DNA from: Escherichia coli
GTDB lineage: Bacteria; Pseudomonadota; Gammaproteobacteria; Enterobacterales; Enterobacteriaceae
Strand: one strand, 5' to 3'
Length of the DNA stretch: 64,000 bases
NCBI RefSeq assembly: GCF_041248615.1
Contig: NZ_CP158426.1
This document shows positions 3,001 to 6,000 of the stretch, piece by piece. The position numbers are program-made. The stretch's first letter is position 1. Every line of letters starts with the position of its first letter.

Positions 3001-6000
3001 AATCTTCACATCGGACGGGCAGGCGACTTCGCAGCGTTTGCAGTTGATGCAATATTTCAGCGCTTCGTCATACAGTGCGCCATCTTTCAGACGCAGACGC
3101 TCGCCATCCGGCCCGGCTTGTTTTGGCCCTGGATAGCCGGGATTCACCCGGCTCACCGGGCAGGCGGTGGTGCAGACGGTGCACTTAATGCAGTTTTCGA
3201 AGCTGGTGTCGTTCATAGTTGGCCTCCTGCGCGTTGGGCAATCTGTTGAGCGGCATGTAAAGCACTGACGGCACAAACACCGCCGCCGCATCCCTGGGCG
3301 ATGGGATCAAATCCGCCCAGCACCGAACCGATGGCAAACAGGTTCTCAATGGTTTGCCCTGCCTGCGACGGGCGTAGTGCCTCATCAGTGGTTACACCGA
3401 ACTGCTGCCACGGTTGCGGCGCAAAAAAATCGCCCTTATACCATTCACCCCGTGTGGCGGTTTGTAGCACATCAAGGCCGAGAATCGGCTCGCGAATGCC
3501 GTTACGTTCCGCTACCAGTCCGCCGCTAAAGAAACTGCCGCTCGCAAGCACCGCAAATTGTGGGCGCAGCGGGATATCGGCGTGATTGCGGGTCCAGATT
3601 TCATTCACTACGCCATTTTTACAGGTCACTTTTTTCACTTCATCGCCTGGCATCCACACGCCACCCTGGCGCACAAACTGGCGCTGTAACTGGTTTTGCA
3701 GACGAATGCCCAGCACGGAAGGCGGCAGCGTTGGCAAAAGCATCAATGAACAAAGTAGTTTTTCATTCAACCAATGCCACAGTTTGTCATCGGCCAGGCC
3801 GAAGCAGGCGGGCATCAGGATCATTTCGCAGGTATTGGCGACAGGAATAAGCGCATCAAGTAACAGCGACCAGTTCTCTTCGTTATCAAGGAAACGGGCG
3901 ATATTCACCGCGCGGAACTCGGTGGCGTTATTGCGCAGGACATCCAGTTCCGGCAGCTCTATTTCTGCGGTTTCAACGGCAAGGCCGAGTTCACGCAACG
4001 AAGCTGCCGCAAGGTGAGCCTGAAAATCCATCAGGCCGCTAATTCCCACTACACATATTTTCTTCGCGGGCAACGGCCAGACAGGGACTTCTGGCGAACT
4101 TAGCCAGGTAGAGCGCAGAGTGCCGAGCGGCGTAATCCGCTGGTGAGCCAGTTCTACGCTGCCCTGCAATTGCGCACCGCTTTCAGCGATTAATGCCTGC
4201 GCCTGGCAAGCGAGATCGAGTACGCGTTGTGGCCCGAGAAGAGAGTAAGGATGGGCAGGGGCCTGCTGACATAACGATTCCAGCCCGTGGTGAATGTCTG
4301 TCACAGCTTGACTATCTGGCAGATGGCTCAGCAAATCCAGCGAACCGGATGAGAAATGCAGCGCGCTTTGACCACGCGTGACAATGGCACAGCGCAGGCC
4401 GTGTTTTTGCAGTTGCAGGCCACAGAGTAAGCCGGCGAGGCCGCCGCCCATAATGACAGTATCAAAGCGCATCTTTCTGCTCCTTCTCCAGACCACACAG
4501 TCCCTGATAAACCCAGCGGGTAAATTCGCTTTCGCGCAGTGCGTCTCCCCATGCTATGGGTTGCACGCCTTTCCAGCGTTCGTTAAGGAAGGTGGAAAGT
4601 TGCTCGATAGATTGCGCGGACGTCGTGACGTTAAAACGTTGCAGCAGTCCGGCAGCCCGGCAGGCGCAGAGTTCGCCCTGGCAGGTACCCATCCCTACAC
4701 GGGTACGACGGCGTAAATCCAGCAGGCTGTTAACGTTTAAATTTTCTACTGCGTACTGCACTTCACCCGCAGTTACCGCTTCGCACTCACATACCAGGCT
4801 GCGGTGCAGGCGGCCTTCGCTCAGCCAGGCTGGTGTGCGATCGCCGTGCCGGTAAACTGCGGAACCGCGCAGCGGAGCGGGCAGGGAGATCACTTTGCGC
4901 AGCGTGACTTCTGCCGGTTCCTGTGAGCCAGGCAACGGCGTGTCGGCAGTGGTACAGGGGCGCGTGTTGCCCAGCTTGCGACACACCGCGTCAGTAGCCC
5001 ATTCCGCCATCAGCCGATAGGTCATCAGTTTGCCACCGGTGATGGTGATAAATCCGTCGAGACCATCGCGTTCAGCATGGTCGAGCAGCACGATGCCACG
5101 GCTGACGTTACGTCCGCTCGGGTCGTCATCGCTGGCAACCAGCGGACGCACGCCAGAATAGGCCCGCAAAATGCGTGTTTTCGCCATCACGGGGGCCAGT
5201 TTTTCCCCTTCACGCAGCAGAATATCAACTTCTTCTGCCGTCACTCGATTATCGTCAATCTCGCTGTAATCAATACGTAAAGAGGTGGTGCCAATCAGCG
5301 AAATGGTATCGCCAGGCACCAGAATATCGGCGTCGGAAGGTTTGCGGCAGCGGTTGATCACATGCTGATTAATGCGGTGATCCATAATCAGCAGCGATCC
5401 TTTCGCCGGGAACATGCGAATGCGCAGATCGGCATATTCGGCAATGTGTTGCCCCCAAATCCCGGCGGCATTAACTACGACAGGCGCATGAAGTGCCTGA
5501 ATTTCGCCGGTGAGATGGTTACGTACACGAACACCGCACACCGTCGCGCCTTCACGAATCAGCCCCGTGACTTCATGAGCGGTAAGGATAACGGCACCGT
5601 GTTCTTTGGCATCGAGCATGTTCGCTGCGGTCAGACGAAATGGATCAACGGTGCCATCCGGAACTTTCACCGCGCCAATCAGTGCCGGGTTAACGGCAGG
5701 TTCGATAATGCGCGCTTGCTGCGGGTCTATAGCTTCTGCGCTGATCCCTGCTTCTTCGCAGGCGCGAATAAAAGTGGCCTGGAAGGAGAGGTCATCTTCC
5801 GGCAGGGTGATAAACAGGCCGTTGGTCGGTTCAACGCAGTGACGTGCAATGCGTTTCAGGATCTGGTTTTCACTAATACATTCGCGGGCCGATTCCGCAT
5901 CGGTTACCGCATAGCGCGCACCGCTGTGCAGCAGGCCGTGGTTACGCCCGGTGGCACCGGTTGCGATGTCGTGGCGCTCAACCAAAATCACGCGCAGCCC

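Follow-up and report, generated by a model that had tools for sequence, protein, structure and literature searches.

Short stop/start overlaps between co-directional genes of an Escherichia coli chromosome segment from glpABC to nap/ccm

INTRODUCTION

The window analysed here, a stretch of 64,000 bases, is a segment of the Escherichia coli chromosome that extends from glpABC to the nap/ccm genes. Between these ends lie nrdB and yfaE, the yfaA, yfaT and yfaS genes, the ato genes, and ada with alkB. The glpABC, atoSC, atoDAEB and ada-alkB groups are established operons of E. coli. Short overlaps between the stop codon of one gene and the start codon of the next, and their links to translational coupling and subunit stoichiometry, are textbook material. 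The nrdAB-yfaE genes have been described as polycistronic (PMC8521395), and napFDAGHBC(-ccm) is a characterised transcription unit (Huber 2023 Table S3, PMC10666635). The window also contains a gyrA gene with the substitutions S83L and D87H, and an IS1397 insertion whose terminal repeats, which contain a mismatch, were recognised by eye.

An earlier note on this DNA had listed eleven start/stop overlaps and had taken them as support for the operon calls and for the chosen start codons. Here we describe the overlaps of the window, the start codons and Shine-Dalgarno (SD) motifs that go with them, their conservation, and what they might mean for translation.

MATERIALS AND METHODS

Junction sizes were read directly on the window sequence, and were then checked against RefSeq and against the curated annotation of K-12 MG1655. 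Distances between genes are written as negative numbers where the genes overlap. Only 7 SNPs in 64,000 bases separate the window from E. coli isolate 362 (NZ_OW967178.1, 1583017-1647016), so RefSeq coordinates carry over to the window one to one. The KE55 genome was dropped as a source of coordinates; the IS1397 insertion is missing from it and its ompC allele differs, so that it is not collinear with the window. For the glp genes, tblastn against a plasmid collection (which includes chromids and mislabelled chromosomes) yielded ten glp lineages from two domains. Breadth across 1,695 genomes is already covered by a published table (Huber 2023, PMC10666635).

RESULTS

The overlaps and their lengths

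Twelve of the 33 same-strand junctions in the window overlap, with lengths that are identical in RefSeq and in curated K-12 (Table 1). A thirteenth overlap, between yfaT and yfaS, is probable. All eleven overlaps listed earlier are present when measured on the window, and the comparison with curated reference starts that had been proposed as a check returned the same geometry in K-12 MG1655 at all twelve junctions. The coordinates given for glpA/glpB proved exact, and the sizes given for glpA/glpB, glpB/glpC, nrdB/yfaE, atoD/atoA, atoA/atoE, atoC/atoS (in which atoS is the upstream gene) and ada/alkB agree with ours. The four nap overlaps exist too, but a '4 bp' intended to cover each of them would be incorrect at napF/napD and napG/napH. 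Two overlaps, yfaA/yfaT and the probable yfaT/yfaS, were absent from the earlier list. The K-12 counterparts that we looked up all occur, at the same distances, in Table S2 of Huber 2023 (PMC10666635). These are ordinary stop/start overlaps, real and already known.

Table 1. Overlapping junctions of the window and the associated ribosome-binding features. Junctions are named upstream gene (stop) / downstream gene (start); dG refers to the anti-SD duplex.
Feature	Position	Strand	Overlap (nt)	Sequence	SD; dG (kcal/mol)	Remarks
glpB/glpC	3213..3216	minus	4	ATGA	AGGAGG precedes; -10.3	
glpA/glpB	4462-4472	minus	11	ATGCGCTTTGA		Measured on window, RefSeq and K-12
SD of glpB	4480..4485	minus		AAGGAG	-8.0	7 nt upstream of ATG, within final glpA codons (E-K-E)
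nrdB/yfaE	13538	minus	1	TGATG	None recognisable; -2.2	
yfaA/yfaT	26914..26917	plus	4	ATGA	Weak	Same geometry in K-12; structured region (opening energy 14.8 kcal/mol)
yfaT/yfaS (probable)	27471..27537	plus	67			67-nt overlap in curated K-12 coordinates
atoA/atoE	37114..37117	minus	4	ATGA		No upstream alternative (in-frame stop at -6); same in K-12
atoD/atoA	37764	minus	1	TAATG	AGGAG; -7.4	Same in K-12
atoS/atoC	40004..40007	minus	4	ATGA		No upstream alternative; same in K-12
ada/alkB	52442	plus	1	TAATG	GAGGAG; -9.4	Same in K-12
napF/napD	58205..58215	plus	11	ATGCACACTAA		Same in K-12
napD/napA	58465..58468	plus	4	ATGA		In-frame stop at -12; Tat motif SRRSFMK from codon 4
napG/napH	61640..61653	plus	14	ATGGCAAATCGTAA	GGAGGGG; -9.8	Same in K-12
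napH/napB	62500..62503	plus	4	ATGA		Alternative ATG at -21 without SD; same in K-12

The distribution of junction distances is sharply non-random. The overlap is exactly 1 or 4 nt at nine of the twelve junctions (P about 2e-7 under a null in which the 20 allowed lengths of up to 30 nt are equiprobable), and these nine match the genome-wide modes, which rank -4 > -1 > -8. By itself, the overlapping-start motif is uninformative. Of the stop trinucleotides in the window, 40% are overlapped by an ATG, GTG or TTG and 19% by an ATG; a chance motif of this kind is found in 7 of 25 genes that have no close downstream partner. The operon and start calls of the earlier note hold; its use of the overlaps to support them is weaker than it was made to appear, because the motif arises by chance on 19-40% of stop trinucleotides.

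Start codons and ribosome-binding sites

What really supports the starts is their ORF geometry, together with domain integrity, SD motifs and conservation. Eight of the twelve downstream genes have no upstream alternative: no other start codon lies between the annotated one and the in-frame stop upstream of it. Among the other four, the best SD lies at the annotated start for glpC, glpB and napB, and yfaT is ambiguous. Starts farther downstream would remove the first Rossmann strand (beta-1) of GlpB and the Tat motif of NapA, and would truncate the AtoC receiver domain at its beginning. The start position is conserved in other genera for glpB, glpC, napD, napA, napH and alkB, and also for yfaT (in Citrobacter). 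Judged from sequence, the downstream start codons appear to be genuine initiation codons, with yfaT ambiguous. The N-terminomics data of the 2026 TRAINSPOTTER paper list no entry for glpB, yfaE, alkB, atoA, napD or atoC.

The anti-SD duplex reaches -5 kcal/mol or stronger at ten of the twelve starts, the exceptions being yfaE and yfaT (-1.8). The predicted opening energy of the overlapping starts (median 6.6 kcal/mol) is lower than that of the coding background (9.2 kcal/mol; P=0.007), and it exceeds that of first-gene starts (5.7 kcal/mol) by a margin that is not significant (P=0.14). Since their surroundings are predicted to be open, they look like genuine initiation sites without general structural masking. 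We had considered coupling by the unmasking of a structured ribosome-binding site (RBS); the predicted energies do not support it in general, and only yfaT appears to be sequestered.

The glp junctions

At the DNA level, the glpA/glpB distance is -11 in eight of the ten lineages compared, representing six bacterial genera and two haloarchaea; beyond E. coli, the 11-nt overlap occurs in Salmonella, Citrobacter, Klebsiella, Proteus, Aeromonas, Hfx. volcanii pHV4 and Halapricum. The glpA TGA takes its T from the third base of GlpB codon 3 and its GA from the opening two bases of codon 4. This T+GA stop spans conserved GlpB residues (F/I at position 3, D/E at position 4), which is why the same length returns in groups as far apart as enterobacteria and haloarchaea. 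All eight bacterial lineages compared have a GGAG at the position of the glpB SD; it is conserved in the GlpA tail while the amino acids there vary. This conservation shows, as far as sequence can, selection on the RBS, in a form that fits coupling and de novo initiation alike. The ATGA of glpB/glpC is conserved in eight of the ten lineages, and the upstream alternative starts of glpC are missing from Salmonella and Klebsiella.

The published compilation gives for this pair (COG0578@COG3075, GlpA->GlpB) a median distance of -10.2 nt (q1 -11, q3 -3.8, n=149; Huber 2023 Table S4, PMC10666635), which ranks about 22nd in that table when it is sorted by deepest median overlap. On the Hfx. volcanii chromosome, glpA1/glpB1 is -14 and glpB1/glpC1 is -4 (Huber 2023, PMC10666635). 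What we add to that entry is only a reason at the level of sequence, namely the TGA over GlpB codons 3-4 and the GGAG in the GlpA tail. It is a detail rather than a new phenomenon.

The nap, ato, ada and nrd junctions

Conservation of the nap overlaps varies with the junction. The napF/napD distance is -11 in Salmonella and -10 in Azospirillum, and napD/napA is -4 in three genera, including these two. The published median for the napD/napA COG pair is likewise -4 (Huber 2023, PMC10666635), and the NapA residue numbering used in the experiments of Grahl 2012 fits the ATGA start. The napG and napH genes overlap in every genus compared, to differing extents (-14 in Salmonella, -4 in Azospirillum, -1 in Vibrio). 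The napH/napB overlap is not conserved: the distance is -4 in Azospirillum and +115 nt in Salmonella, and from the latter it follows that this overlap is dispensable for function.

The ada/alkB distance is -1 in Klebsiella too; in Paracoccus the order of the two genes is reversed. The yfaE gene has no alternative start, there being an in-frame stop at -15. Published distances for the NrdB->Fdx COG pair have a median of +3 and a q1 of -1 (Huber 2023, PMC10666635). Plasmid-borne yfaE homologues were rejected as comparators for this junction; they stand alone, without nrdB, and are uninformative.

The yfaA, yfaT and yfaS junctions

The yfaA/yfaT overlap is conserved, as GTGA, in Citrobacter portucalensis. 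A GTG at -27 is a weaker alternative start for yfaT; the SD is weak at both positions, and both are start-capable in Citrobacter. The yfaS start is, from sequence comparison, most likely the ATG at 27471 and not the GTG at 27561 given by RefSeq. In Citrobacter, yfaT and yfaS have an annotated overlap of 67 nt, the start context is conserved, and an in-frame stop eliminates the upstream candidate. A start at 27561 would also cut into a signal-peptide-like N-terminus.

DISCUSSION

The best explanation of these junctions, to which we give a probability of roughly 0.7, is that they are ordinary short overlaps in known operons (glpABC, nrdAB-yfaE, yfaATS..., atoSC, atoDAEB, ada-alkB and napFDAGHBC), and that the downstream genes are translated by a gene-specific mix of termination-reinitiation and independent, SD-driven initiation. 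Each downstream RBS, comprising SD and ATG, sits inside the final codons of the upstream gene, and a terminating ribosome is consequently 0-11 nt from the next start codon. There, the nearby SD and start could recapture the ribosome, or its 30S subunit, for reinitiation; de novo initiation at the SD would offer a second route. Reinitiation should dominate where an SD is lacking (yfaE and yfaT), and a strong SD at an open site (glpB, glpC, alkB and napH) may give de novo initiation a substantial share. The length of each overlap is set by the first out-of-frame stop within the N-terminal codons of the downstream gene. From the established overlaps, start codons, SD motifs, accessibility and conservation we infer the dependence of downstream on upstream translation that the label 'translational coupling' denotes.

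Precedents for such coupling come from reporter tests of native 4-nt overlaps of E. coli, four of which were coupled out of five (hyfHI, astDB, ydbH/ynbE as well as menDH were tested, and bioBF was uncoupled; Huber 2019, PMC6728339). Removal of the SD lowered reinitiation in four of five tested E. coli pairs (PMC6728339), and coupling has been reported to collapse at a spacing of roughly 20-38 nt. Distances from -8 to about +10 nt were treated as predictive of reinitiation in Huber 2023 (PMC10666635), where heteromeric complexes were enriched 4.5-fold among short-distance pairs, and where GlpAB, GlpBC, AtoDA (in Table S2) and NapGH are flagged as such complexes. The window pairs resemble the coupled ATGA and TGATG pairs of these studies (PMC6728339; PMC10666635) in that nine of the twelve are at -4 or -1, in that most have an SD that falls within the upstream gene, and in that the products of several are partners in heteromeric complexes (GlpABC, AtoDA, NapGH). 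Unlike the reporter-tested pairs, they are known from their sequences; the nine at -1 or -4 fall within the predictive range, whereas glpA/glpB (-11), napF/napD (-11), napG/napH (-14) and the probable yfaT/yfaS (-67) fall outside it. We found no direct test of coupling in the literature for the glpABC, yfaE/nrdB or napFDAGHBC pairs, on which the 2019 Huber paper and a 2025 review are silent.

It is possible, if unlikely, that the overlaps are real and translation is uncoupled. They would then have arisen neutrally from genome compaction and mutation (a stop codon being lost and translation running on to the next stop out of frame, or a start codon being gained), and each downstream gene would initiate at its own SD. 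The E. coli bioB/bioF pair is a clear precedent: it has the same in-operon ATGA geometry as the 4-nt pairs of the window, and its downstream translation is, by experiment, fully independent of upstream termination, so coupling cannot be read from sequence alone. Good SDs at ten of the twelve starts, in regions nearly as open as those of first genes, point the same way, and the strong SDs and open sites of glpB, glpC, alkB and napH would permit fully independent initiation. Overlap lengths also drift between taxa (napG/napH, napH/napB), conserved GlpB codons 3-4 explain the position of the glpA stop passively, and the motif is common by chance. Yet four of the five native overlaps tested by reporters were coupled, and yfaE and yfaT, essentially without an SD, have no obvious independent route. 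The sharp peak at -4 and -1, and the enrichment of complex subunits, suggest selection; so does the GGAG kept in the variable GlpA tail, although it is equally compatible with de novo initiation. It is very improbable that some of the overlaps are instead artefacts of annotation, arising from a preference of gene callers and curators for ATGs that overlap stops, with the true starts elsewhere. Start calls here can err, as the yfaS start of this strain (27561, against an equivalent of 27471 in K-12 and Citrobacter) and the ambiguity of yfaT illustrate, and the overlapping-start motif is common by chance. Against this stand the eight starts that lack an upstream alternative, the conserved elements that downstream starts would delete, the conservation across genera of six starts (glpB, glpC, napD, napA, napH and alkB), and the superior SDs at the annotated starts of glpB, glpC and napB.

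Taken as ordinary overlaps with mixed modes of initiation, these junctions have little importance beyond annotation quality: the gene and operon calls in the window are sound, and agree with curated K-12. The practical consequences are that the bare overlap motif is unfit as evidence for a start codon; that the RefSeq start of yfaS in this strain is probably wrong, and conceals a 67-nt overlap; and that the -11 and -14 junctions lie beyond the range in which coupling has been studied experimentally, such that coupling there would be a prediction from sequence.

A more speculative reading, which we consider doubtful, is that the 11-nt glpA/glpB overlap is held by selection, with conserved dual coding in the 67 nt shared by YfaT and YfaS as a second oddity, the signal peptide of YfaS being perhaps encoded over the C-terminus of YfaT. 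The glpA/glpB overlap may be kept in this way beyond what ancestry or horizontal transfer alone would explain; the acidic, variable tail of GlpA may serve chiefly as the RBS of glpB, and the glpA stop may be locked in GlpB codons 3-4. If this were true, GlpB would be made by the ribosome that had just finished GlpA, which would favour assembly of the GlpAB flavoprotein dimer co-translationally and at 1:1, from enterobacteria to haloarchaea.

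Overlapping gene pairs in the window

Junction geometry was taken directly on the window, at all 33 same-strand junctions, 12 of which overlap. The distribution of distances is sharply peaked: nine of the 12 overlaps measure precisely 1 or 4 nt (P ~2e-7 under equal likelihood of the 20 allowed lengths of 30 nt or less), and 13 of the 33 junctions lie between -8 and +6 nt (negative values are overlaps, positive values spacers), against 24% genome-wide (P = 0.03). The 11 overlaps listed in the earlier note are all present, glpA/glpB at exactly the coordinates it gave. If its length of 4 bp was meant for all four nap overlaps, it holds for napD/napA and napH/napB, and not for napF/napD and napG/napH, which are longer. 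Curated annotation of K-12 MG1655 has identical geometry at all 12 junctions. The K-12 counterparts that we searched for appear with identical distances in Table S2 of Huber et al. 2023 (PMC10666635), where glpA/glpB, glpB/glpC, atoD/atoA and napG/napH carry a complex-subunit flag. These overlaps are thus already in the literature, as members of a well-described class, the co-directional overlapping gene pairs.

Gene overlaps, with positions in the window
Junction	Position	Strand	Overlap	Remark
glpB/glpC	3213-3216		ATGA	
glpA/glpB	4462-4472	-	11 nt, ATGCGCTTTGA	
nrdB/yfaE	13538		TGATG	
yfaA/yfaT	26914-26917		ATGA	absent from the earlier note's list
yfaT/yfaS	27471-27537		67 nt, dual-coding	probable; thirteenth overlap
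atoA/atoE	37114-37117		ATGA	
atoD/atoA	37764		TAATG	
atoS/atoC	40004-40007		ATGA	
ada/alkB	52442		TAATG	
napF/napD	58205-58215		11 nt	
napD/napA	58465-58468		4 nt	
napG/napH	61640-61653		14 nt	
napH/napB	62500-62503		4 nt	

Genomic setting

In an orientation that is the reverse of K-12, the gene order is yfaU, glpCBA, glpTQ, nrdAB-yfaE, gyrA, yfaATSQP, atoSC, atoDAEB, rcsCBD, ompC, ada-alkB, napFDAGHBC and ccmA. A 3-kb probe round the flagged position, in glpA-glpB-glpC, has matches in 5,421 of 5,426 complete E. coli genomes. Only 7 SNPs in 64,000 bases separate the window from isolate 362 (NZ_OW967178.1, 1583017-1647016), whose RefSeq coordinates therefore carry over 1:1. The KE55 genome, tried first as a coordinate source, was set aside; its collinearity with the window is lost beyond ~11.8 kb, in part through the hypervariable porin gene ompC (49010-50137), which has 375 codons here versus 368 in KE55 and 367 in K-12.

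Two of the seven SNPs fall in the quinolone-resistance-determining region of gyrA, which is doubly substituted in the window: S83L (TTG, 22699-22701) and D87H (CAC, 22711-22713). At both codons isolate 362 and K-12 have the wild-type residues (TCG Ser, GAC Asp). IS1397 (IS3 family; 1,432 bp, 11822-13253), with a programmed-frameshift transposase (11873-13221), lies within a REP-like palindrome between inaA and yfaE, which converge. It is bounded by a target duplication, GTAA (11818-11821 and 13254-13257), has imperfect terminal repeats (TGAACTGCACCCCAAA and TGAACTGAACCCCAAA), and occupies this site in only 2 of the 5,426 genomes. The interval from glpQ to inaA (8822-11063) holds two divergent genes, for a LysR-family regulator and an MFS transporter. 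K-12 has only the 207-bp pseudogene yfaH there in place of these two genes, and so appears to carry a deletion remnant. In region 628-1833, adjoining glpC, an ISNCY-family/RpnE transposase-like gene (862-1833) has beside it a pseudogene fragment truncated at its N-terminal end (628-861); the counterparts in K-12 are rpnE and the ypaA pseudogene.

Assignment of start codons

The earlier note took the overlaps as support for the operon calls and the chosen starts. Both are right, but the reasoning from overlap is weaker than the evidence from reading frames, Shine-Dalgarno (SD) sequences and conservation. Of the window's stop trinucleotides, 40% are overlapped by an ATG, GTG or TTG (19% by ATG alone), and 7 of 25 genes without a close downstream partner have the overlap motif by chance; being so frequent, the motif alone does not validate a start codon. 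At eight of the 12 junctions (yfaE, atoE, atoA, atoC, alkB, napD, napA and napH) no start codon lies between the upstream in-frame stop and the annotated ATG, which makes a longer protein impossible. Downstream alternatives would remove conserved elements: Rossmann strand beta-1 in GlpB, the Tat motif SRRSFMK (from codon 4) in NapA, and the beginning of the receiver domain in AtoC. The SDs at the annotated glpC, glpB and napB starts are by far the best among the candidates, and the NapA numbering in the experiments of Grahl et al. 2012 (R5, R6, F8, M9, K10, A17) fits the ATG at 58465. The sole ambiguous start is that of yfaT, with a GTG at -27 and a weak SD at both candidates.

RefSeq (PGAP) starts yfaS (alpha-2-macroglobulin) in this strain at GTG 27561, which has no SD (+0.6 kcal/mol), is heavily structured (15.7 kcal/mol), and would fall mid-way in a signal-peptide-like segment; ATG 27471 restores a signal peptide. 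Curated K-12 coordinates place the start 67 nt inside yfaT, and the Citrobacter portucalensis homologue (60% identity) is annotated with the identical overlap, the start context cccgATGgataccc being conserved there and the next upstream candidate removed by an in-frame stop. The most likely start is therefore 27471, and the RefSeq start is probably wrong. The 4-nt yfaA/yfaT overlap is also kept in C. portucalensis, as GTGA.

Conservation of the junctions

Related junctions were found by tblastn against a plasmid collection, which includes chromids and mislabelled chromosomes. Read from DNA rather than annotation, glpA and glpB overlap by 11 nt in E. coli, Salmonella, Citrobacter, Klebsiella, Proteus and Aeromonas, as well as in two haloarchaeal replicons (Hfx. 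volcanii pHV4 and Halapricum); in two Vibrio the distance is -4 or -1. The glpA TGA takes its T from the third position of GlpB codon 3 (TTT or ATT) and its GA from codon 4 (Asp/Glu), and residues 3-4 are conserved, directly before the FAD-binding GGG motif; in the aligned junctions, -11 recurs because the stop is built from these conserved codons. In the variable, acidic GlpA tail, a GGAG always stands 7-10 nt before the glpB ATG in the bacteria compared. These distances are consistent with the published figures for the GlpA->GlpB COG pair (median -10.2, q1 -11, q3 -3.8, n = 149), which stands ~22nd from the top of the sorted cross-phylum table, and for the Hfx. volcanii chromosomal glpA1B1C1 (-14/-4; PMC10666635). 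Eight of 10 lineages have ATGA at the glpB/glpC junction, and longer glpC start alternatives of the E. coli type are absent from the aligned Salmonella and Klebsiella junctions.

E. coli, Salmonella and Azospirillum share a napD/napA distance of -4, and their napF/napD distances are -11, -11 and -10, respectively. napG and napH overlap in all four lineages compared (14 nt in E. coli and Salmonella, 4 in Azospirillum, 1 in Vibrio). napH and napB overlap by 4 nt in E. coli and Azospirillum, and in Salmonella their distance is +115 (spacer 5370-5486 of its nap locus, L016). ada/alkB is -1 in Klebsiella. On Paracoccus aminophilus pAMI5 the order is reversed, alkB preceding ada by 96 nt; ada there overlaps a second, downstream 2OG-Fe(II) oxygenase gene by 4 nt (L020 2242-3303, 3300-3639), so that ada here again overlaps an oxygenase gene, but another one. 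Homologues of YfaE, a small ferredoxin, are annotated (~45% identity) on >1,300 conjugative plasmids, among them IncC and MOBH plasmids of Klebsiella, E. coli, Salmonella and Vibrio. In two such loci (L021 1438-1695 and L022 1516-1740) no ribonucleotide reductase genes lie beside them; as solitary genes, they are uninformative comparators for nrdB/yfaE. For the NrdB->ferredoxin pair, the published median is +3 and q1 is -1 (PMC10666635).

Initiation sites and possible translational coupling

Anti-SD duplexes of -5 kcal/mol or stronger occur at 10 of the 12 overlapping starts, among them glpC (-10.3), napH (-9.8), alkB (-9.4) and glpB (-8.0); yfaE (-2.2) and yfaT (-1.8) have none. The energy predicted for opening the region from -18 to +10 round the start has a median of 6.6 kcal/mol for overlapping starts, versus 5.7 for first-gene starts (P = 0.14) and 9.2 for random coding positions (P = 0.007). 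By these predictions the overlapping starts look like genuine, accessible initiation regions, and in general they are not masked by mRNA structure; yfaT is the exception (14.8 kcal/mol).

The best-supported mechanism for such pairs, and the standard one, would be termination next to the start with reinitiation. The downstream ribosome-binding site sits within the last codons of the upstream gene, so that a terminating ribosome adjoins the next start and could reinitiate; an SD would aid this, and some de novo initiation would run in parallel. In the only systematic reporter tests of native E. coli 4-nt overlaps (Huber et al.), hyfHI, astDB and ydbH/ynbE were strongly coupled, menDH ~60% coupled, and bioBF not at all; SD removal lowered reinitiation in four of the five, and coupling fell steeply with increasing spacing. 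The -11 and -14 overlaps are members of a reading-frame series (-8, -11, -14) whose upstream frame has xAT Gxx at the start codon. They fall beyond the range of -8 to +10 that Huber et al. 2023 (PMC10666635) treat as predictive.

We found no published coupling tests of the window's pairs in the literature; coupling here is thus inferred, and the earlier note's label of 'translational coupling' is plausible. At glpB, glpC, alkB and napH, where the SD is strong and the site open, initiation may really be independent. Reinitiation is expected to matter most at yfaE and yfaT, the two starts with no SD.
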